Virus genome (UHGV): UHGV-0193172
Direction: 5' to 3' (one strand)
DNA: 10,937 nucleotides
Source: a virus
Shown here: positions 163 through 9,620 of the stretch, piece by piece
Numbering within the stretch: position 1 is the stretch's first letter
Layout: every line of letters begins with the position of its first letter
Notes under the pieces: model-generated
Database searches by the model: none
What the model saw: only the letters and a program-made list of their open reading frames with translations
Told to the model about the DNA's origin: nothing
Program-made: the position numbers and the translations under genes

Positions 163-216
163 TGGCCGTTTCCGGCCTGCATGGCATGATTTGCGCTTTT
201 GGACGGGAGATTCAGT

Positions 217-816
217 GTGCTGATTGGTTATGTAAGGGTATCAACAAATGACCAGAATACAGACCTGCAACGAAACGCTCTTGTTTGCGCAGGATGTGAA
301 CAAATATTTGAAGATAAATTAAGCGGGACAAAGACAGACCGACCGGGATTAAAACGCGCTTTAAAGCGGCTTCAAAAAGGTGACACGCTGGTTGTCTGGA
401 AACTGGATCGCCTCGGGCGAAGCATGAAACATCTGATTTCTCTCGTCGGGGAACTACGGGAGCGAGGGATTAATTTTCGCAGTCTGACCGACAGCATAGA
501 TACATCTTCTCCAATGGGGCGTTTTTTCTTCCACGTTATGGGTGCCCTGGCTGAAATGGAACGTGAATTAATTGTTGAACGTACACTGGCCGGACTGGCG
601 GCAGCGCGCGCACGGGGGCGCACAGGCGGACGTCGCCCGAAGCTGACAAAAGAACAGCATGAGCAAATAGCAAGGCTGATCAAAAACGGTCATGACAGGA
701 AACAACTGGCGATCATTTACGACATCGGCATATCGACGATTTATCGTTATCACCCTGTAGGCGATATACAGGCTGAAGAAACAACCAGGCAGACTCAGGA
801 AAATGAAAACCGCTAA
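217..816 (+). CDS. pin: Serine-recombinase DNA invertase, Pin/Gin/Hin/Cin family
   Basis: ORF track 199..816; the product from the GTG at 217 (read as MLIGYVRVSTNDQNTDLQRNAL...DTLVVWKLDRLGRS...SLTDSIDTSSPMGRFFFHVMGALAEMERELIVERT...) is near-identical to my recollection of E. coli Pin and closely related to Hin/Gin. GGGAGA Shine-Dalgarno 7 nt upstream of GTG 217. Start codon choice (GTG 217 vs TTG 199) is uncertain. Confidence 0.9.
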   Translation: MLIGYVRVSTNDQNTDLQRNALVCAGCEQIFEDKLSGTKTDRPGLKRALKRLQKGDTLVVWKLDRLGRSMKHLISLVGELRERGINFRSLTDSIDTSSPMGRFFFHVMGALAEMERELIVERTLAGLAAARARGRTGGRRPKLTKEQHEQIARLIKNGHDRKQLAIIYDIGISTIYRYHPVGDIQAEETTRQTQENENR

Positions 817-835
817 TCTGACCATTAGCGGTTTT
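806..835. terminator. Bidirectional hairpin terminator between convergent pin and the T-U ORF
   Basis: 12-bp stem AAAACCGCTAAT / ATTAGCGGTTTT (806-817 / 824-835) with a 6-nt loop; A/T runs on both sides; overlaps the pin stop codon (814-816) and sits 8 bp from the T-U stop (843-845). Confidence 0.5.
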
Positions 836-842
836 GCGTTAA

Positions 843-1322
843 TCAAAACAGCCCTTTAACGGAGCTGGCCGCGCTGTTAAGGGATGATGTGACCTTATCT
901 TTGAAGCCGGACAGCATATCACTGAACGATGAGGATTGCAGGCGCTCCCGCAAATCCTCATCACAGCGTTCAAGAGTCAGTGAAAATTCTATCTTTTTCG
1001 CCTTACCGTAGCGATCAAACTCGGAGCGGGTCGTATTCGTTTCAGTCAGTACATACATGCCGTAAATCTGCCCGACACCATCAATCAGAGGCCAGGGGCG
1101 TCCTGTATATGCCTGCGTGGTCAGCAGCGAAAGCGACACTTCGCCACCTGTAATTTCAGGATAAAGCACGCCAGAAAGCACGATGCGATCATCACCTGCA
1201 CCGATATACTGCCAGCTTGCTGAGCGGTTACTGACCTGCGCAATCTTCCGCTCCTGCCACTCCCCACGAACAGCAAGTGCGCGGGGCAGGTTCTTAAAGA
1301 CAATATCGCCGGGGCCAATACG
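843..1322 (-). other. gpU-like tail protein domain (P2 U family) with no start codon of its own in this frame
   Basis: C-terminal 159 aa (RIGPGDIVFKNLPRALAVRGEWQERK...LSGVLYPEITGGEVSL...WPLIDGVGQIYGMYVLTE...KIEFSLTLERCDEDL) match my recollection of P2 gpU (…LAGVLYPELTGG…WPLLDG.GMIYGMYV…). The domain begins directly after an A7 tract at the junction (1323-1329). Confidence 0.6.
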
Positions 1323-3737
1323 TTTTTTTGTCTCATCAACCAGCTTACCTGTGTTATCAGCAATTTTGCTGAGTCTGCGTAGCGTGCCGGTATTGCTGTC
1401 TGTGAGCGGTTTGTTGTCTTTGGGTTTATCGCCTCCGGTGCCATTGCCATTTTCCGCAGACTTCGGCGGATTGATTTTCGCAATGTCTCCCTGAAACAGA
1501 GCAACCTTGTCCTGAAGAATGGCCGCACGCTGTGCGTCTTCGATTTTCTTTCTCGCCCTTTCCGCTTCATCCGGAAGCACACCGAGTTTTTCAAGTATCC
1601 ACGCCAGCGTATCCAGCAACATTTTTGCAGGCGTCAGAACAAGCTGTAGCGCGCCACCAAGAACGTTACCGAATATCTCGCCAGCACTGGTACATTTATC
1701 CAGCGTTTCCTTGCTGGACTCCATCGGTGACAGCAGCGATTTAAACCAGTTAAACACCTGGCTGATCCCGCTTCCGATTGCGTCAAAAACAGGACCAAAC
1801 CGTTCAAAGGTTTCGCGCAACGGGGTCAGCCTTTCCATAATCCCGCTGAACACCCCGGCAAAAAATGCCCTGATGGGATCCCAGTATTTCCAGATAAGAA
1901 CGGCAGCTCCGGCAAGCGCAGCCACGATAAGACCAACCGGACTGAACAACGCCCCGATAGCGCCTCCCAGTAAAGAAACGGAACCCGTCACCATTCCCCA
2001 TAGTGCTGGCAGAACCCTGACAGCATTCATTGATCCGGTCAGGAGGGAAAAACCAAGACGCAGTTTTGCCAGCGGGCCAGCAAGCACACCAATAGCCAGC
2101 GACAACGAGCCAACCGTTGCAGTCATTGCCAGCAGTGCACCGCCTGCAATCAGTAGCTGGCGCGTCAGTGCGGGATGGGCCTGCGCCAGCGCCGTCACCT
2201 TTGATACCACACGCGTGAGCCACTGCGTGACAGAACGCAGCGGACCATCAATCAGATCTGCAATGCGGATGCGCAACCCTTCCCATGCACTGCTGAGTGA
2301 TTTCAAATCGCCGTCAAGGTTGTTGGCCATAACCTTTGCCGTGCGTTCAGCCTCACCGCGCGCGCCTTCAAGTTCTTTTCTCAGTTTGGGTAAGGAGCCG
2401 TCACCTGCCGCATCAACGAGGGCCATAAATGATGTGAAAGCCTCTTCTCCGGCAATGTCCTTAAAGAACGATACCCGGTCAACTTCCCCGTATTTGCGGG
2501 TAGCTTTATAAAGGTCAGCCAGCACATCCTCCATCGGGCGCATTTTGCCCCCGGCATCCGAGACAGACACGCCAAGCTCTTTCAGCGCCTCTGCTGCCGC
2601 CTTTGGCGGTGATGCCAGACGAGCCAGGCTGGCACGCATTGCCGTACCAGCATCACTCCCCCTGATACCCATATTCGCCAGCACGCCCGCCATCGCTGCG
2701 GCCTGCTCCAGCGATATTCCCAGCTTACCCGCCACCGGACCTGCATATTTCATGGTTTCACCCAGTGCGCGAAGGTCAGTGTTGGTACGGGTAAACGCTG
2801 CGGTGAGTGTGTCGCCGACCCGGTCCATCTGGTCAGCAGAAAGACCGAACTGCGTCAGAATATTTGAGCCAATATCCGCCGTCTCACCGAGGTCCATACC
2901 GCCAGCCGTTGCCATGCTCAGTACGCCAGGGAGCGCAGCCTGAATGGCCTGTGGTGTGAAGCCAGCCATTGCAAGAAATGCCTGCCCACTGGCGGCATCG
3001 CCTGCGGTGAACTGCGTTTCAGAGCCAAGTTTTAACGCCTGCTCACGCAGCGCCTTAAACTGCGGGCTGTTTTTGTCGATTCGCGTCAGTGCCTGAACGC
3101 GGGACATCTCTTTCCCGAACCCGATCGCAGGCTGCAAAAAACGCCCGGCAGCATAGCCGCCCGCCGCTGCCGCACCAATTGCCAGCGCACCACCTGTTTT
3201 CAGTTTTCCCGCTGTTTCCTGCGCGCGCGAATACCGCTCACGCGCCTGCGTTACACGCGCAAGCGCCTGCCGTTCGCGTTCAAGCTGGTTGTTGTACTGT
3301 TCGGTGCGTCTGATGGCCTGCTGGATGGTGTTATCGCTGCCTGTCAGGGAAATGCCGTGGCGTTTCAGCTCTCCGCCAATCTCCCGCATTTTCTGAATTT
3401 CCCGTGTGCGCGATTCATTCAGGCGTTCAAGCCGGGTGCTTAACTGCTGCATCAGCTTTTGTTGTTTTTCGCTGAGCACTGTACCCGTGCGTTGTAACTG
3501 ATTAAGGGCGTTAAGCTGGCGTCGTGCTTTCACGATACCCGCATCCGCTTTACTGACAGCGTCGCGGGCGCGCTCAAATGAACGCGCCTGACGCTCGAGA
3601 TTTTTGATCGCCCCCTGCGTTCGCTGGATGGAGTCACCAAACTGCCCCATCAGGCGGCGGGCGTTTTCGGCAGGCCGGGTCAGCCTGTCAACGGCGCTGA
3701 AAGCGACCCGGATATCAAGAGTCTTCATTGTCTGCAT
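843..3737 (-). CDS. Phage tail tape-measure protein (P2 gpT-like) continuing in frame into a gpU-like tail domain (T-U fusion ORF)
   Basis: ORF track 843..3764, 973 aa. Long helical, Ala/Gly-rich protein with hydrophobic glycine-zipper-like stretches typical of tape-measure proteins; it lies immediately downstream of the E/E' chaperone pair and its start overlaps the E' end. Start is probably ATG 3737 or 3728 (GTG 3764 also possible). The last ~159 aa resemble gpU (see next feature). Confidence 0.8.
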   Translation of the reverse strand: MQTMKTLDIRVAFSAVDRLTRPAENARRLMGQFGDSIQRTQGAIKNLERQARSFERARDAVSKADAGIVKARRQLNALNQLQRTGTVLSEKQQKLMQQLSTRLERLNESRTREIQKMREIGGELKRHGISLTGSDNTIQQAIRRTEQYNNQLERERQALARVTQARERYSRAQETAGKLKTGGALAIGAAAAGGYAAGRFLQPAIGFGKEMSRVQALTRIDKNSPQFKALREQALKLGSETQFTAGDAASGQAFLAMAGFTPQAIQAALPGVLSMATAGGMDLGETADIGSNILTQFGLSADQMDRVGDTLTAAFTRTNTDLRALGETMKYAGPVAGKLGISLEQAAAMAGVLANMGIRGSDAGTAMRASLARLASPPKAAAEALKELGVSVSDAGGKMRPMEDVLADLYKATRKYGEVDRVSFFKDIAGEEAFTSFMALVDAAGDGSLPKLRKELEGARGEAERTAKVMANNLDGDLKSLSSAWEGLRIRIADLIDGPLRSVTQWLTRVVSKVTALAQAHPALTRQLLIAGGALLAMTATVGSLSLAIGVLAGPLAKLRLGFSLLTGSMNAVRVLPALWGMVTGSVSLLGGAIGALFSPVGLIVAALAGAAVLIWKYWDPIRAFFAGVFSGIMERLTPLRETFERFGPVFDAIGSGISQVFNWFKSLLSPMESSKETLDKCTSAGEIFGNVLGGALQLVLTPAKMLLDTLAWILEKLGVLPDEAERARKKIEDAQRAAILQDKVALFQGDIAKINPPKSAENGNGTGGDKPKDNKPLTDSNTGTLRRLSKIADNTGKLVDETKKRIGPGDIVFKNLPRALAVRGEWQERKIAQVSNRSASWQYIGAGDDRIVLSGVLYPEITGGEVSLSLLTTQAYTGRPWPLIDGVGQIYGMYVLTETNTTRSEFDRYGKAKKIEFSLTLERCDEDLRERLQSSSFSDMLSGFKDKVTSSLNSAASSVKGLF

Positions 3738-4244
3738 TCCCGCTGCGAAGTGCCGCCCGCTCACGCCAGCTAACCACTTCGCCGGGCGTCATCATGAAGA
3801 TTTCGGCGGGCGACCAGTTAAAAATAACGGCAATATCTGCCACAAAGTCTTCTATGTGCTCAAAGCACACAACCGTGATCAGGCTTCCGTCGCCTGTTCG
3901 TTCTTCCCGCCAGAGTCCGCACCGCTCAAAAAATTTACGGCAACCACACATAACTGAATAAAGTCACGGGATGCCATTTTTTTGATCGTCACTTCATCCA
4001 GTCGCGGTGATGTCACGCGTGACAGCAGCGTAAACATGGATTCCGCTTTCAGATTCAGCACATCAGACAGCGACAAATCTCGCAGAGATCCAGCCTGCTC
4101 AATAGCCCCGGTGATCTCCACATACGTGATTTTTTCGCCGCCTCGCTCAATTGGTTGGGTAAGTTTTACGCCACGCTCACTGGTTTCTTTCACAGTGTCA
4201 GCAACTACCGTGTTTTCGGTATCGATGTTTTTCGTCTCTTTCAT
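3715..4244 (-). CDS. E+E' -1 programmed-frameshift tail chaperone product (shift at 3927-3933, about 176 aa)
   Basis: Minus-strand T_TTT_TTG (plus-strand CAAAAAA, 3927-3933) is in the X_XXY_YYZ register of the E frame (codons AAT TTT TTG). The -1 frame is open from there to the TGA at 3715-3717 (the track's 3715..3951 ORF), ending inside the start of T. This is the conserved arrangement in P2 E/E' and lambda G/GT. Confidence 0.65.
3879..4244 (-). CDS. Tail assembly chaperone gpE-like (upstream product of the E/E' pair)
   Basis: ORF track 121 aa; AAAGGAG Shine-Dalgarno 7 nt upstream of ATG 4244; lies between the tail tube and tape-measure genes and contains an in-register T_TTT_TTG slippery heptamer near its 3' end. 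Confidence 0.75.
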   Translation of the reverse strand: MKETKNIDTENTVVADTVKETSERGVKLTQPIERGGEKITYVEITGAIEQAGSLRDLSLSDVLNLKAESMFTLLSRVTSPRLDEVTIKKMASRDFIQLCVVAVNFLSGADSGGKNEQATEA

Positions 4245-4298
4245 CAGGAAACTCCTTTCAGTCAGAGGCGACGCACTGCGCCGCCTGCATATTACTTA

Positions 4299-4811
4299 TC
4301 AGCCAAGCCCAAGCGCGGAACGGATGCGATCGGGCACAATGTCCTTGCCGTCCTTCCGGTAAATGAAGTTCAGCAGGTCAATCTCCCACAGCGGGCGATC
4401 GTTAACGCTCAGCTTGTAGTAGGTGTTTTTAATGGCGTAAGAGTGTGATGTGGCTTCGCCCTGTTTGGCTTCCCCCATATCAATTTCCGTCACACGTCCG
4501 CGCATTTCGACTTCATACAGGTCGCTTTCTGCATCGGTGTAGTATTCACCCGCAAAACGCAGCAGCGTGCCGTCAATCGTGCCGCCATACTTAAGGAACA
4601 GCTCACGAACTGCGCCCCCCATGACAAAGCTCGCATCAAGCGCGGAGTCGTCCAGACCGAGATCAATACTTACCGCACCCATCATGCCACCACCCCGGTA
4701 GCTGTCGGTTTTGCGCGTCAGCTTAGGCAGAGTGACGGACGTCACCTTACCCACTTCGTTTTCACCATCCACAAACAGCGTAAAAAAGCGAAGATGTTTT
4801 GGCACAGCCAT
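4299..4811 (-). CDS. Contractile tail tube protein (P2 gpFII-like)
   Basis: 170 aa, MAVPKHLRFFTLFVDGE...LPKLTRKTDSYRGGGMMGAVSIDLGLDD...YYKLSV...EIDLLNF resembles P2 FII; GGGAGGTG Shine-Dalgarno upstream; start overlaps the FI stop (TGATG at 4809-4813). Confidence 0.85.
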   Translation of the reverse strand: MAVPKHLRFFTLFVDGENEVGKVTSVTLPKLTRKTDSYRGGGMMGAVSIDLGLDDSALDASFVMGGAVRELFLKYGGTIDGTLLRFAGEYYTDAESDLYEVEMRGRVTEIDMGEAKQGEATSHSYAIKNTYYKLSVNDRPLWEIDLLNFIYRKDGKDIVPDRIRSALGLG

Positions 4812-5995
4812 CAGGCACCTCCCAGCACCGAAAATGCGGGTTCAAAGTATTCATCAGTAAACGTCTGGTAAAGCTCCATATCTTCCAGCGGGGGAACAGG
4901 CGTATATTTGTAGCGAATACGCACACGCCCCTGACGTAAATCCGTGGTGCTGTTATCCACCACGTCATACCAGCACTCCGCGCCAATCAGTTTCCCGGCA
5001 GTAACCAGTGAATCCAGTTTTGCCCTGATGGCACTGATAACATCCTTCACGTTCGCAGGCGTCAGTGGACTGTCGATGGTTTCAAACTGCGCTTCCGCAA
5101 TTGAATCAGCCAACACCTGTGCGGTTCGGGTATACACCTCAAAGATGTAGGCGTTCGTTTCCGGTGTGCGGTTGCCCCAGAAGCGGAACCCGTTGCGACG
5201 AATAATGGTCGTGATTTCTTTGTTGTTGAGGCTGTTGGCATCGCTGTCTTCGGCCTGCAACGACCAGAACACATGCCTCGACATCCCCAGCACATTTTTA
5301 ACCGGAACGTTGGACAGTGATTTGTGCCAGCCCTGCTCATGGTCAATGTACGCACGAAGGCCGCACGCATAGGCAGGCGCGGGGAACGTTTCGTTTTTGC
5401 CACTTTTCGGGTTGTAGGCGATGAAGTCCGGCCATAAGAGCATCACCTCACGTTCGTTGAATTTCTGGCGATAGGTAATCGCCTCAGCCATCGTGTTACA
5501 GCCGTGACATGAGGCATACACAAACGCGCGCAGTTTACCTGCAATCACGCACAGGGATTTTGTTACAGCCTCCGTGTCCAGCTCCGGCGCGGCCAGAATA
5601 CGCGGACGGTATCCGATGCTTTCATCCTGCTCTGCAACAAGCAGCGCATACATCCCCGTATAGCTGCCGTCATCCTCAGAACCACCGATAACCAGTTGAT
5701 CCTGCGTCTTTCCGTCTTCTTCTTTGTGTTCAGCCACGCGAACGACGATCACCTTTGTGCTCACCTGGTCTGAGATGGCCTTAAGCGCACGATAAAGCGT
5801 CCCCGTTGTTCCGCATTTTCCCAGCACGTCATTGACGCGGGTCAGCAGTGTGGGCTTGTTCAGCGGGAACAGCTTCGCGTCCGCATCATCCGCCGTTGCC
5901 ACGATACCGATAACGCTGGAATCAACATCGTTAATCGCTGTTACCAGGTCGGTATTTTCCGTAACACGGGCACCATGAAAACGAGTTTCACTCAT
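4811..5995 (-). CDS. Contractile tail sheath protein (P2 gpFI-like)
   Basis: 394 aa, size and sequence character of P2 FI sheath; AAGGGG Shine-Dalgarno before ATG 5995; immediately upstream of the tube gene with a 1-nt stop/start overlap. Confidence 0.85.
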   Translation of the reverse strand: MSETRFHGARVTENTDLVTAINDVDSSVIGIVATADDADAKLFPLNKPTLLTRVNDVLGKCGTTGTLYRALKAISDQVSTKVIVVRVAEHKEEDGKTQDQLVIGGSEDDGSYTGMYALLVAEQDESIGYRPRILAAPELDTEAVTKSLCVIAGKLRAFVYASCHGCNTMAEAITYRQKFNEREVMLLWPDFIAYNPKSGKNETFPAPAYACGLRAYIDHEQGWHKSLSNVPVKNVLGMSRHVFWSLQAEDSDANSLNNKEITTIIRRNGFRFWGNRTPETNAYIFEVYTRTAQVLADSIAEAQFETIDSPLTPANVKDVISAIRAKLDSLVTAGKLIGAECWYDVVDNSTTDLRQGRVRIRYKYTPVPPLEDMELYQTFTDEYFEPAFSVLGGA

Positions 5996-6152
5996 AGCTT
6001 CAGCCCCTTGTATCCGTTAAATGATTCAGCAACAATCATCACCCACCACGCGCGTAATCTCACCCCTGCGCTATTCTCCCGCCACGGCGACAACAAAAAG
6101 CAGTAACCCCCTCCGCACGCACATGCGACCATGCCGCACAGGGAGGGAACAG

Positions 6153-7262
6153 ATGACCGACACCACCATGCAATTGCTCAGTCAGGGCACAGCCCCCGTG
6201 AAAATGCCGGATTTTGATATTCTCGCGGAGGGTAAAACGCTGTCAGGCGTGGCAGAGCGCCTGATGAGCCTGTCACTGACCGACAACCGGGGATTTGAGG
6301 CGGACCAGCTCACCATCACGCTGGATGATGCGGATGGTCAGTTGCAGCTACCGCCACGGGGCGCGCGCCTGACGGTTCTCATTGGCTGGAAAGGAGAACC
6401 GCTGACAGAAAAAGGCACTTACATTGTTGATGAAATCGCTCACGAAGGACCGCCGGACAGGCTGACTGTTTCAGCCAGAAGCGCAGATTTTCGGGATGAA
6501 TTTAACGTTAAACGTGAGGTGTCCTGGCATGATGTGACCGTTGAGCGTGTGGTATCCGCCATCGCTCATCGGTATGGTCTGAAACCGCAAATCAGCGAAA
6601 TGCTGATGGATATCGAAATCGACCACGCCGACCAGACCGAAGAAAGCGACATGTCCTTCCTTACGCGCATGGCGGAAATGCTGGGCGCAATCACCACGGT
6701 AAAAAGCGGCAATCTGTTATTCATCATGCCAGGTGGTGGCGTGAACGCGCAGGGCCAGCCGTTGCCCTCGTTCGCCATTACACGCAGCAGCGGCGATCGC
6801 CATCAGTTCCGCATTGCTGACCGCGAGGCGTATACGGGGGTACGCGCTTACTGGCTTGATCTTAATTACGGGAAAAAGAAAAAAGTCAGCGTGAAACGCC
6901 GCAAACCGCCAAAACCCAAAAAGGAGAAAAGCAGCAGCCGTGAAGGTGATTATATGGAAGGCGCGGAAGGCAATGTGTTTGTGTTACGCAAGACTTATCA
7001 GAACGAGCAGGCAGCAAGACGCGCAGCGGCGGCAAAGTGGCAGCAGCTACAACGCGGAGCTGCATCATTCTCCATCACGCTGGCGCGTGGACGTGCGGAA
7101 CTCTACCCCGAAATGCATGGCACGGTGACAGGCTTCAAAAGTGACATCGACAATCAGGACTGGATTATTGCAAAAGCCGAGCACACCATTGATAACAGCG
7201 GCTTTACCACGCAGCTTGAGCTTGAAGCAAAAATCCCGGAATGGATAGCAGAAACAGAGTGA
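6153..7262 (+). CDS. Phage late control gene D protein (P2 gpD-like tail/baseplate hub protein)
   Basis: ORF track 6021..7262; the part from MTDTTMQLLSQGTAPVKMPDFDIL... with SLTDNRGFEADQL, RSADFRDEF, SWHD, a lysine-rich KKKKVSVKRRKPPKPKKEK stretch and GFTTQLELE matches my recollection of the gpD family. Preferred start is ATG 6153 with a GGGAGGG Shine-Dalgarno 5 nt upstream; ATG 6021 lacks one and would put the promoter inside FI. Confidence 0.85.
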   Translation: MTDTTMQLLSQGTAPVKMPDFDILAEGKTLSGVAERLMSLSLTDNRGFEADQLTITLDDADGQLQLPPRGARLTVLIGWKGEPLTEKGTYIVDEIAHEGPPDRLTVSARSADFRDEFNVKREVSWHDVTVERVVSAIAHRYGLKPQISEMLMDIEIDHADQTEESDMSFLTRMAEMLGAITTVKSGNLLFIMPGGGVNAQGQPLPSFAITRSSGDRHQFRIADREAYTGVRAYWLDLNYGKKKKVSVKRRKPPKPKKEKSSSREGDYMEGAEGNVFVLRKTYQNEQAARRAAAAKWQQLQRGAASFSITLARGRAELYPEMHGTVTGFKSDIDNQDWIIAKAEHTIDNSGFTTQLELEAKIPEWIAETE

Positions 7263-7328
7263 GCAACTTAGATATATTAGCTCAGACTTAAGCTGGCAAG
7301 TTTACAGTATAGAATTAAACATAAACGA

Positions 7329-7360
7329 CGGTCCGCTCCGTGCCAGAAGCGGACTTTGTC
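7329..7360. terminator. Bidirectional hairpin terminator between convergent gpD and the AT-rich cargo gene
   Basis: Stem GTCCGCT / AGCGGAC (7331-7337 / 7348-7354) followed by TTTG on the plus strand and a T-rich run on the minus strand; 69 bp after the D stop and 23 bp after the cargo-gene stop. Confidence 0.5.
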
Positions 7361-7382
7361 ATCCCCATGTAAGGTTGATTGC

Positions 7383-8405
7383 TTAATACGCATTTAATTT
7401 AAATTTGTATTTGCTTTCTATGTAATGGATAAATTCAATTATGCTTTTTTCTATCGCGTCTAATATATGAATATATCCATCCCGATTTAAGGTCCTATCC
7501 AACTCAAAATGATGAACTATCCCATGTCTATATTGTATGATTTCAGAAATTCGATTCTCAAGGTAATCAACTGATTTTCCAATTCTTTTTTTCTTATAAA
7601 GAATCGCTCTCACATCTATATCTAGCCACTCTTTATATGCTTTGTTTAGGAGGGTTAAGTTTTGAAAAGTGTAATTTCTTGCAATAACACTTTCTATTGA
7701 AATATTTCCTTTCTCTATCTCAAGCAGAATATCAAAATCAACTTTTTGCTTATACGATGTTCTTTTTGCTATTGCGAAAGGATCGTACTTTATAAGTATT
7801 TGAAAAGCTCTAGAGAAAAAATATTCAAACATAGCAACCGCAAAAGGTACTAATCCATTATATATAACTCTACTGGGATCCATACATTGCATATCATCAA
7901 AGTATTCGGATAAGCCGCCATCTTCCGGCAGGTTTAATTTAATAGAAGGTTCAGGTAAGGCATGTTTAACAGCGGAAATCTCATGATGAACATGATTAAA
8001 TATTGAAGAAATGCCACGACTGATCGGACTACTAGAATCCTCCCATAGAGGAGCGTATCTATTTTTCCCATAATCACCTATAAGTGTTCCACCAAAAAGA
8101 CTCCTTGCGCCTTTTAGAACATCATTAAGCATTTTTACATCATGCCAACTAGCGCTAGATAAATTACGCACATGCAATGCCCATTTATTACCAGATATGT
8201 GTAGTTCGTCATTTGAAACAGGATATATATCAGCCGAAACTCCATCTGTAGATTTGAAGTCCGTATCATCAAACCAAGAGTAATTTAACGTTCCTTGGGG
8301 CCATTCCCACAAATGTTTACACCTTTTAAAACCTAAATTTTCAAGATAATTTTTAAGTTCGTTTCTAGTTGCTTTTTTAGGGTACAGCGTTATATCTCTT
8401 CCCAT
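7383..8405 (-). CDS. Hypothetical 340-aa protein in an AT-rich cargo island; candidate HEPN-like (R-x4-H) abortive-infection/defence protein
   Basis: ORF track 340 aa; ATG 8405 with AGGTGA-like Shine-Dalgarno upstream. Region about 7263-8560 is visibly AT-rich (roughly one-third G+C by eye) against >50% in the flanking phage genes. Predicted-helical C-terminal half carries RHGIVH (aa 293-298). No family recognised by eye. Confidence 0.6.
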   Translation of the reverse strand: MGRDITLYPKKATRNELKNYLENLGFKRCKHLWEWPQGTLNYSWFDDTDFKSTDGVSADIYPVSNDELHISGNKWALHVRNLSSASWHDVKMLNDVLKGARSLFGGTLIGDYGKNRYAPLWEDSSSPISRGISSIFNHVHHEISAVKHALPEPSIKLNLPEDGGLSEYFDDMQCMDPSRVIYNGLVPFAVAMFEYFFSRAFQILIKYDPFAIAKRTSYKQKVDFDILLEIEKGNISIESVIARNYTFQNLTLLNKAYKEWLDIDVRAILYKKKRIGKSVDYLENRISEIIQYRHGIVHHFELDRTLNRDGYIHILDAIEKSIIEFIHYIESKYKFKLNAY

Positions 8406-8537
8406 GCTTTATTCACCTGACATACAATATTTTACATTTTAACTATCATGAACGTATGAATTTTTACATTGGATGTATGGAAGTTCAACAGCTATTGAAA
8501 GTTCAATTTTCACTCTTCGCACAGAGCGAGCTGTTAG

Positions 8538-8566
8538 TTGGAATTAGGGATCGTACAATCTAGAAT
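8538..8566 (+). promoter_or_regulatory. Putative sigma70 promoter for ogr
   Basis: TTGGAA (8538-8543), 17-bp spacer, TAGAAT (8561-8566), about 30 bp upstream of the ogr start and its GGGAGG Shine-Dalgarno. Confidence 0.4.
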
Positions 8567-8596
8567 AGCGGCAGCACCACGTTAAGGGAGGTCGCT

Positions 8597-8857
8597 ATGT
8601 TCCGTTGTCCGCTTTGTGGCGCATCTGCCCGTATCCGCACAAGTCGTCCGGAAAATGATTCAAACACCGTGCGGCAAAAGTATTACCAGTGTAACAATCT
8701 GGAATGCGGCGTATGCTTCTCAACACTGGAAGCTTTCCATAAATTCACATCGAAACAAGCCTCCGGCGTTCACTCTTCAGAAGGTATCCCGTGGCATGAG
8801 CTGCCAGCTTCACACAGGGGAAACAATCAGATGAGTTTGCCTTTACCTCAGAATTAA
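8597..8857 (+). CDS. ogr: Ogr/Delta-family zinc-finger late-gene transcriptional activator
   Basis: MFRCPLCGASARIRTSR...YYQCNNLECGVCF resembles my recollection of P2 Ogr (MFHCPLCQHAAHARTSR...YHQCQNVNCSATF) with the C-x2-C...C-x4-C zinc finger; it follows D as in P2. 86 aa, C-terminally longer than the P2 Ogr I recall. Confidence 0.85.
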   Translation: MFRCPLCGASARIRTSRPENDSNTVRQKYYQCNNLECGVCFSTLEAFHKFTSKQASGVHSSEGIPWHELPASHRGNNQMSLPLPQN

Positions 8858-9047
8858 CAGGCAGAATTGCCGGAGTAACAAAAAAGCGATAGATTACGCG
8901 CGGGTGCCTTTCGGCTGATGGTCGGAGGGAACACCCGAAGGCCAGATGTGGAAAGGCCCCGGAAAACACTTTTGTTTAACCGAGGCCCTAACCGTCTACC
9001 CTAAGCAAGTGAAAGGTTAGCGCCTCTCCGGAAAAGGAGCAAGTGCT

Positions 9048-9188
9048 ATGTCGCAAAAATCGCTTACGGCCATCACGTTCTGCGTGACGGTAATCCTCAT
9101 CATCTGGATGTTACACGGTTCGCTGTGCGAAATACGGATGAGCTTCTGGGGAGCGGAGTTTGCGGCGTTCTTACAGTGTAAGCAGTAA
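9048..9188 (+). CDS. Hok/Gef-family type I toxin (HokA-like small membrane peptide, 46 aa)
   Basis: Not in the ORF track (too short). ATG 9048 with AAGGAG Shine-Dalgarno 8 nt upstream. MSQKSLTAITFCVTVILIIWMLHGSLCEIRMSFWGAEFAAFLQCKQ has the N-terminal TM helix plus the SLCE(I/L)R and E(V/L/F)AAF(L/M) signature of Hok/Gef peptides (compare Hok ...[21 protein letters not shown] and HokA ...SLCELHIKQESYELAAFLACK, from memory). Confidence 0.7.
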   Translation: MSQKSLTAITFCVTVILIIWMLHGSLCEIRMSFWGAEFAAFLQCKQ

Positions 9189-9267
9189 GGAAACCGCGAC
9201 GGGGGAGCAATCCCCCGTCAATCGGTTGCCAGGGTAAGGCCGAAGTGGCACCCAAATTTAAATTGAG

Positions 9268-9300
9268 GCCCACCAGTAAGAGTGGTGGGCTTAACACTTG
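9268..9300 (+). terminator. Putative terminator / 3' stem-loop of the hok-like transcript
   Basis: Stem GCCCACCA / TGGTGGGC (9268-9275 / 9283-9290) followed by a T-rich tract; preceded by a GNRA-looped hairpin GACGGGGGA-GCAA-TCCCCCGTC (9198-9219). Confidence 0.35.
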
Positions 9301-9323: not shown

Positions 9324-9620
9324 ATGAGTGAAATGGTATTTTGTCGCGGATGCGGCAAGGAAATACATAAAGATGCCACATCCTGCCCCAATTGTGGAGC
9401 ACCTCAAAGAACAGCAAGTTCAAAAAGCAGAATGACAGCCGCACTACTGGCTTTCTTTTTAGGTGGTCTTGGTGCACACAAATTTTATTTAGGTAAAGTG
9501 GGGCAAGGATTCCTTTACCTTATTTTTTGCTGGACATTCATTCCGGCAATCGTGGCATTTATTGAGTTTTTTATCTATCTATGCACCTCTGATGAAGATT
9601 TCGCCCGCAAATATGGCTGA
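9324..9620 (+). CDS. Small membrane protein with N-terminal zinc ribbon (CxxC...CxxC) and C-terminal TM2-like domain
   Basis: ORF track 98 aa; AAGGAA Shine-Dalgarno upstream; CRGCGKEIHKDATSCPNCG zinc-ribbon motif followed by two hydrophobic helices (LLAFFLGGLGAHKFYLGK...LYLIFCWTFIPAIVAFIEFFIYL). Confidence 0.6.
   Translation: MSEMVFCRGCGKEIHKDATSCPNCGAPQRTASSKSRMTAALLAFFLGGLGAHKFYLGKVGQGFLYLIFCWTFIPAIVAFIEFFIYLCTSDEDFARKYG

Follow-up and report, generated by a model that had tools for sequence, protein, structure and literature searches.

The viral genome UHGV-0193172 was analysed as a stretch of 10,937 nucleotides (hereafter the window), which represents the right end of a prophage of the P2 family (Peduoviridae) adjoining flk in Escherichia coli; a deposited relative, 'Escherichia phage 500465-2', is classed as a Gemsvirus. 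Between the late tail gene gpD and the late-gene activator gene ogr, the window carries a single minus-strand gene encoding 340 amino acids (aa), present exactly as reported in a preliminary description made from the letters alone, and labeled 'hypothetical protein' (WP_001525173.1) by the Prokaryotic Genome Annotation Pipeline (PGAP). That description regarded the gene as an orphan with its own promoter, acquired horizontally as a moron, and proposed that it was a novel phage-defence or abortive-infection (Abi) module. The analysis described here indicates that the gene is an exchangeable cargo of the D-ogr junction and belongs to a widespread family under purifying selection, in which an N-terminal α/β domain precedes a predicted HEPN domain with its catalytic residues conserved; the product is most likely an Abi ribonuclease (RNase). 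The features of the locus are listed in Table 1.

Table 1. Features of the D-ogr region in the window and other genes found at the same junction.
Feature	Position	Strand	Remarks
340-aa gene, N-terminal α/β domain and predicted C-terminal RiboL-PSP-type HEPN domain	7383..8405	-	Intact open reading frame (ORF), ATG start
N-terminal α/β domain and long helix, aa 1-150	7956..8405	-	No known family
Predicted HEPN domain, aa 167-333	7407..7907	-	
Rx4H motif codons, R293-H-G-I-V-H298	7512..7529	-	
Left copy of imperfect 10-nt direct repeat, GCAACTTAGA	7263..7272		Marks the insertion point, directly after the D stop codon
Left frame of the cargo site	7273..7382		Holds the terminator hairpin; common to cassettes with different cargo (alignment with DUF2971 and YecA-family cassettes)
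G+C-rich hairpin, probable bidirectional terminator for D (+) and the HEPN gene (-)	7331..7354		Terminator scan and folding
AT-rich 5' region of the HEPN gene	8406..8554	-	Shine-Dalgarno ~8414-8418; right part is a frame shared between cassettes; promoter only presumed
Right copy of imperfect 10-nt direct repeat, ACAATCTAGA	8555..8564		
gpD, P2 late tail gene D, left backbone flank	6021..7262	+	413-aa ORF; tail protein or late control D in related records
ogr, late-gene activator, right backbone flank	8597..8857	+	
Alternative cargo, GmrSD_N protein			527 aa; sub-threshold HNH match
Alternative cargo, PIN_4 protein			500 aa
Alternative cargo, DUF3800 protein			389 aa
Alternative cargo, SEC-C/YecA-family protein			379 aa
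Alternative cargo, DUF2971 protein			261 aa; matches PADLOC defence candidate PDC-S31, E 6e-27
Alternative cargos, two proteins			221 and 487 aa; no Pfam or PADLOC match

The limits of the insert were set by alignment to the empty site of UTI89, in which the same backbone has 42 nt between D and ogr and a single repeat copy, GCAACTTAGA, is followed by ATAGCGGCAGCACC...ATG(ogr), that is, directly by the ogr leader. On this basis the insert comprises positions 7273-8564 (1,292 bp). Its G+C content is 34.4% vs. 52.6% in the rest of the window, with a dip to 0.30-0.38 over 7200-8550 and flanks at 0.53-0.57, and the G+C content at third codon positions (GC3) is 0.25 in the 340-aa gene vs. 0.60 for D and FI, in agreement with the low-G+C block of ~1.3 kb noticed earlier. 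The bidirectional terminator that had been proposed was also recovered, since the hairpin was detected as a terminator on both strands (3 sites in the scan vs. 0.6 expected) and folds stably on the minus strand (-21.7 kcal/mol, z -3.95) as well as on the plus strand (-16.4 kcal/mol, z -3.18). Upstream of the gene, the Shine-Dalgarno sequence and a short GTTAWATG-like element located ~40 nt upstream are the sole features that recur among the homologues of different hosts.

The junction itself behaves as a site for exchangeable cargo. The block was matched in 412 E. coli records, and in 347 of them only its last 36-44 bases, corresponding to the ogr leader, were covered. Using a chimeric query in which the left flank (3263-7262) was joined to the right flank (8553-9300), the prophage backbone was found in 1,112 of 5,426 complete E. 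coli genomes; the D-ogr junction was mostly empty in those matches that were sampled at even spacing, and occupied junctions held unrelated single genes in either orientation. The 340-aa gene occupies this position in 65 complete genomes. Cassettes with different cargo have in common ~90 nt at the left (including the terminator hairpin) and ~70 nt at the right, as expected if the cargo swaps by recombination within conserved frames; the route of exchange could be homologous recombination in these frames or site-specific insertion. In related prophages the same backbone site is either empty or holds unrelated cassettes, the pattern by which moron hotspots are recognized, and the empty site in UTI89, the alternative cargos and the low G+C across hosts uphold the view that the gene is a horizontally acquired moron.

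Published P2 hotspots comprise A-portal (tin/old), Z/fun and some minor ones (Rousset, 2022; Vassallo, 2022; 2026 preprint). They follow the same logic, a fixed intergenic site with interchangeable and unrelated cassettes of one or a few genes, but differ in location: tin-old lies between A and the portal gene, and the D-ogr site is unnamed in Rousset 2022 and Vassallo 2022 and the 2026 preprint at most includes it in the expression 'within the late genes'. No earlier description was found in the literature on the protein accession, on a D-ogr hotspot or on recent prophage screens. The alternative cargos, mostly uncharacterised single genes, are possible further defence candidates.

The designation 'orphan' does not hold for this gene. 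A word-indexed search gave 292 matches, nearly all of full length (~340 aa) and 63-86% identical, from Pantoea, Proteus, Shewanella, Aeromonas, Methylococcaceae, Halochromatium and many metagenomes, and 343 clusters at the 50% identity level reached E<=1e-3 when a profile was run exhaustively against 1.84 billion representatives. Among the best 150 of the 343 clusters, the full-length members (~310-370 aa) span both domains and the rest are mostly short fragments. Judging from these sequences, the family has one fixed two-domain layout across Gammaproteobacteria and beyond, and the atypical and short matches are frameshifted or fragmentary gene calls. The possibility that the N-terminal domain is a modular sensor reused with other effectors was discarded, as the odd matches are calls of this kind and no other architecture occurs in the data searched. 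NCBIfam and PHROGs gave no match for the 340-aa protein, and no phage structural or housekeeping protein was matched in any sequence or fold search, consistent with the earlier remark that the product lacks structural-protein features.

In every host checked the family gene has 33-42% G+C and the flanking host DNA 42-63%, which fits a long-term mobile gene. Comparison of the window copy with copies 98, 83, and 80% identical gave ratios of nonsynonymous to synonymous substitution rates (dN/dS) of 0.12, 0.08, and 0.08, respectively, with no internal stops, and the 65 complete genomes contain two alleles ~2% apart, both intact, with a dN/dS of 0.12 between them. The gene is under purifying selection. 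Some damaged copies were observed in other hosts: a family copy on the chromosome of Pseudomonas sp. 15A4 (locus 6001-7013) shifts frame near residue 200, and several genomes have frameshifted or truncated copies broken inside the first HEPN helix, which suggests recurrent inactivation of the putative nuclease half, as for a costly or toxic gene.

An AlphaFold2 model based on a 29-sequence alignment (mean predicted local distance difference test score, pLDDT, 87.5; predicted template modeling score, pTM, 0.79) divides the protein into an α/β domain (residues 1-125, with the order β-α-β-β-β-α-β), a long helix (127-149), a lower-confidence linker and an all-helical domain (167-333). Residues 181-330 match the Pfam family HEPN_RiboL-PSP (PF18735) with an E of 1.7e-4 and 22 bits (gathering score 28.4); this family is matched by 30 of 39 diverse relatives at E<=0.01 (best 5e-9), and a precomputed PF18735 tag is present on most close homologues. 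The HEPN signature consists of Rx4-6H, a polar residue (N/D/H) after the Arg and an upstream acidic residue, typically in Ex3[KR] (Anantharaman et al., 2013, PMC3710099). The 39 sequences, with identities as low as 19%, have just five residues without variation, namely G55, D89, E194, R293, and H298; R293 and H298, the ends of the RHGIVH stretch (aa 293-298) in which the preliminary description had recognized a HEPN motif, are also invariant in 29 close sequences. The polar residue after the Arg is H294, which at least 90% of the 39 sequences share, with N instead in one member. E194 represents the upstream acidic residue, located in Ex3K/R in distant subgroups and accompanied by S at +4 and R/Q at +5 in the close subgroup. 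The protein also has the all-α core of two helical hairpins known from solved HEPN domains. Because PF18735 matches extend across the relatives and the invariant residues fit the superfamily signature, the C-terminal domain is assigned, at the sequence level, to the HEPN domains of the RiboL-PSP clade, related to AbiD/AbiF and with the catalytic residues kept. The 'Ribo L-PSP-HEPN' clade was placed next to AbiD/AbiF (Anantharaman et al., 2013, PMC3710099).

The traits originally given for this clade, fusion to endoRNase L-PSP or an operon with a ParB-like gene, were not found in the 340-aa family, and the endoRNase L-PSP/RidA identity that the clade name would lead one to expect for the N-terminal domain was rejected. 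Pfam does not match this domain, which occurred in this family alone, and no structure resembles it convincingly; no hit at E<=1e-3 came from Foldseek searches of the PDB and of viral structures. Its conserved residues are G55, D89, N94, F104, and G106.

The protein was compared with the defence systems that contain HEPN domains. PADLOC v2.0.0 includes models for PD-T4-2, PD-T4-5, PD-T7-3, and ApeA. A known system was rejected on the basis of this collection, as 38-39 relatives gave just two single matches at chance level, to unrelated models, and the window protein gave none. Membership in the 21 systems of Vassallo was likewise dismissed, since these include no gene of 340-aa size and their hotspots differ. 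At the domain level the closest validated relative is PD-T4-2B, the small HEPN protein that together with a DUF262/ParB-like protein constitutes PD-T4-2, which protects against T4, also in the native strain (Vassallo et al., 2022, PMC9519451). PD-T4-2B comes from the E. coli accessory genome and its top HHpred hit is likewise PF18735 HEPN_RiboL-PSP (97.8%) (PMC9519451); however, PD-T4-2 has two genes, one for the ParB-like partner, whereas here one 340-aa protein has an unrelated N-terminal domain and no partner gene.

Among single-gene systems, Tha-1 of the Staphylococcus aureus phage 80α is a non-specific Abi RNase of 301 aa that is triggered by minor tail proteins and has an inhibitor, Ith (PMC11087260). 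Tha-1 and Tha-2 are likewise single prophage proteins in which the N-terminal half is unassigned and the HEPN domain is C-terminal, with the Rx4H motif close to the end of the protein, at R265-H270 vs. R293-H298 here, but the N-terminus of Tha models poorly (pLDDT <50) and that of the 340-aa protein is a confident and highly conserved fold. Homology to Tha-1, represented by 80α gp03, which bears the reported motif, was rejected as the two align only over a motif helix of 21 columns (BLASTP E 0.12; hhalign probability 0.4%, E 0.13). HepS (STM14_3211), from the Salmonella prophage Gifsy-1, is a tetrameric protein of <250 aa that consists of a bare HEPN domain; the tail-tip protein J triggers it, and it cleaves the anticodon loops of tRNAs (PMC13043305). 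It is also a stand-alone HEPN moron without a partner, constitutively present but inactive until infection; its motif is R100-H105 and it lacks the additional 150-aa domain. Besides this extra domain, identity with HepS was discounted by the family profile, which matches no PDB chain at E<=10, the HepS chains being assumed to be in the PDB copy searched. RnlA needs the antitoxin RnlB, encoded adjacent to it, and no such gene is located beside the 340-aa gene; the RNase LS toxins RnlA/LsoA were rejected since hhalign aligns 11 motif columns (probability 0.15%) and a weak N-terminal BLASTP match (E 8e-4) was not reproduced by the profile. As far as sequences can tell, the 340-aa protein resembles Tha, HepS, and PD-T4-2 in outline and belongs to none of them, nor is it RnlA or any system modeled in PADLOC.

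Homologues occur in diverse genomic settings. Besides the P2-like D-ogr site of E. coli, these include a lambdoid prophage of Pantoea, in which the gene follows the replication genes and which also has a SIR2_2 gene; a lambdoid-type viral contig (found in a scan made with the closer alignment), with the gene in a moron region after J, a lom-like gene, stf, an invertase and umuDC-like genes; a conjugative element with a DpnII/MboI-type restriction enzyme one gene away; an smpB-adjacent integrative island with AbiTii, two integrases and a type I restriction-modification (R-M) system; and regions rich in insertion sequence (IS) elements and toxin-antitoxin-like genes. Whether homologues are located in defence islands, a point raised in the preliminary description, can be affirmed for some of them, with AbiTii, type I R-M, SIR2, and DpnII-type genes as neighbors.

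In all these settings the gene travels alone. A hidden partner gene was rejected because the neighbors in the Shewanella, Aeromonas, Pantoea, and metagenome loci are mutually unrelated, and a hidden RNA antitoxin of the AbiF or ToxI type because there are no tandem repeats, no Rfam family and no conservation of the upstream DNA. Neither the conserved adjacent antitoxin gene nor the repeat RNA that characterize type II and type III toxin-antitoxin systems was found. In Aeromonas dhakensis (four of four loci) a 297-aa gene (11064-11957) follows the HEPN gene in the same orientation after a gap of 41 nt, and it has no counterpart in other hosts.

The rest of the window shows several particularities of the prophage. 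In related genomes PGAP gives for gpD a shortened 801-nt 'VgrG/Pvc8 family' coding sequence and, upstream of it, a small pseudogene fragment. This shortened call is probably an annotation artefact, since the window has the whole 413-aa ORF without interruption and the record of phage 500465-2 annotates it over its entire length. The tail genes FI-FII-E-E'-T-U (199-5995 region) are on the opposite strand to D and ogr (6021-8857), unlike in classical P2, an inverted arrangement common to the inspected records of this prophage lineage. A Hin/Pin-type serine invertase gene (199-816) adjoins U, and related records add duplicated tail-fibre and assembly genes there. About 421 bp present in ZY22049 (locus 13545-13965) are missing from the window, with the junction near 1228/1229 and the rest 100% identical; the gap covers the 3' end of the tape-measure gene T and the 5' end of gene U, leaving one T-U fusion ORF of 973 aa (843-3764). 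Since all the listed best-matching complete E. coli genomes have an intact T/U arrangement, either the tail module of the source of the window is defective or the assembly is wrong, probably. Directly after ogr, a hok/gef-family toxin gene (~9048-9188) forms part of the conserved prophage backbone, and a match to the sok antitoxin RNA (RF01794) at 8902-9061 has 50.2 bits (E 1e-9), under the gathering score of 59. A gene for a small TM2-domain membrane protein (9324-9620; G+C ~0.40-0.43) is found between hok and flk; in other strains this flk-side position is occupied by a zinc-ribbon gene and TagO (500465-2) or by Com and a DNA methyltransferase (RM14723), so that the prophage seems to have a second variable spot at its end or just beyond it. 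The 'complete genome' of phage 500465-2 (NC_049343.1/CP025901.1) contains the host genes flk, fabB, and mnmC and that of a major facilitator superfamily (MFS) transporter; the record is a prophage prediction that overran the attachment site and not a packaged phage genome.

The reading that is favored, by a modest balance of the evidence, is that the gene encodes an Abi RNase carried in a mobile single-gene cargo cassette at D-ogr, with an N-terminal domain that both holds off the nuclease and senses a trigger. Where the Rx4-6H motif is intact, HEPN domains work as dimeric RNases that need no metal (PMC3710099), and the solo HEPN proteins of prophages are held inactive and triggered during infection (PMC11087260; PMC13043305). 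By analogy, the HEPN domain of the 340-aa protein would be a metal-independent RNase with its Rx4H sites paired across a dimer, and the N-terminal α/β domain would be the sensing or regulatory module that silences it in the lysogen. When another phage infects the cell, a cue would lift this inhibition, and the active HEPN site would then cut cellular and/or phage RNA (tRNA or mRNA) so that translation stops; the infection would be aborted and the kin of the lysogen, together with the prophage, would be protected. The earlier proposal of a novel defence or Abi module is thus sustained as far as a candidate role is concerned, but its novelty was overstated since stand-alone prophage HEPN proteins of Abi type are known; what distinguishes this one is its N-terminal domain and its location at a P2 cargo site not explicitly described.

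Several observations weigh against the Abi interpretation. The PF18735 score of the window protein itself is under the gathering cut-off, and the region of the motif is the least confident of its domain (pLDDT 68-70) and is modeled as a β-hairpin instead of the start of a helix. PADLOC gave 0 families at E<=1 for this protein. The promoter previously assigned to 8406-8530 was not recovered, as a sigma-70 consensus scan gave no minus-strand site upstream of the start of the gene and no excess over shuffled sequences. Frameshifted copies of the family occur, and several of its contexts are small chromosomal islets without defence genes or informative neighbors. Finally, the N-terminal domain is as conserved as the nuclease, unlike the fast-evolving sensors of phage proteins; this is the main misfit with a simple 'phage-protein sensor' and leaves room for a constant cue or for a role other than defence.

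Such a role, for instance as a moron for RNA processing or regulation that takes part in the turnover of stress transcripts or in the control of competing plasmids or satellites such as P4, would account for the deep conservation of the N-terminal domain (G55, D89, N94), which suggests that what it recognizes is an invariable ligand or substrate and not a phage protein that varies. It would also agree with the contexts without defence neighbors and with the SEC-C/YecA-family and DUF3800 cargos of the D-ogr site, which have no established role in defence. On the other hand, patchy horizontal spread, low G+C in every host, the repeated association with phages, integrative and conjugative elements (ICEs) and R-M/Abi genes, and the position in the Abi-related HEPN clade are features typical of conflict systems, and none of them is typical of housekeeping RNA metabolism; a non-defence function is considered quite improbable. 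Slightly less improbable, yet still unlikely, is that the protein is an addiction or selfish toxin that mainly stabilises the prophage or element, neutralised by its own N-terminal domain (a cis-antitoxin) or by a small RNA or peptide. The search for partners described above speaks against this reading, as no conserved adjacent ORF or RNA accompanies the gene, and most prophages of the lineage do without the gene at a junction that is usually empty; toxin-antitoxin and Abi roles are, however, not mutually exclusive. Its very low G+C, the lack of a recognisable sigma-70 promoter and an annotation as 'hypothetical protein' alone could also be understood if the gene were an AT-rich relic silenced by H-NS and without a current function in E. 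coli. This explanation is contradicted by the dN/dS values, which are 0.12 between the two alleles intact in 65 complete genomes and ~0.08 in the family, with invariant catalytic residues, and is therefore held to be highly improbable.

A broader version of the Abi interpretation is conceivable but doubtful: the family would be a widespread single-protein immune system in which the N-terminal domain is a new type of sensor for a constant cue (a small molecule, an RNA feature or a conserved host or phage factor) that activates an AbiD/F-related HEPN RNase, and D-ogr would be an additional, unnamed P2 defence hotspot with the PIN, DUF3800, and SEC-C proteins and two other cargos as candidates.

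If the role in defence is true, a new family distributed throughout Proteobacteria would join the few stand-alone HEPN Abi proteins (Tha, HepS), one that present detection tools miss, as illustrated by the lack of a PADLOC match and the PGAP label. It would provide a compact two-domain model for how a solo HEPN nuclease stays silent and is then activated. About one fifth of complete E. coli genomes have this prophage lineage, and its D-ogr junction would become a further site in the search for defence genes, where six or more other cargos are unexplored; moreover, as the gene is found in sequence type 131 (ST131), O55:H7, and enterotoxigenic E. coli (ETEC) strains, it could affect the susceptibility of clinical lineages to phages.

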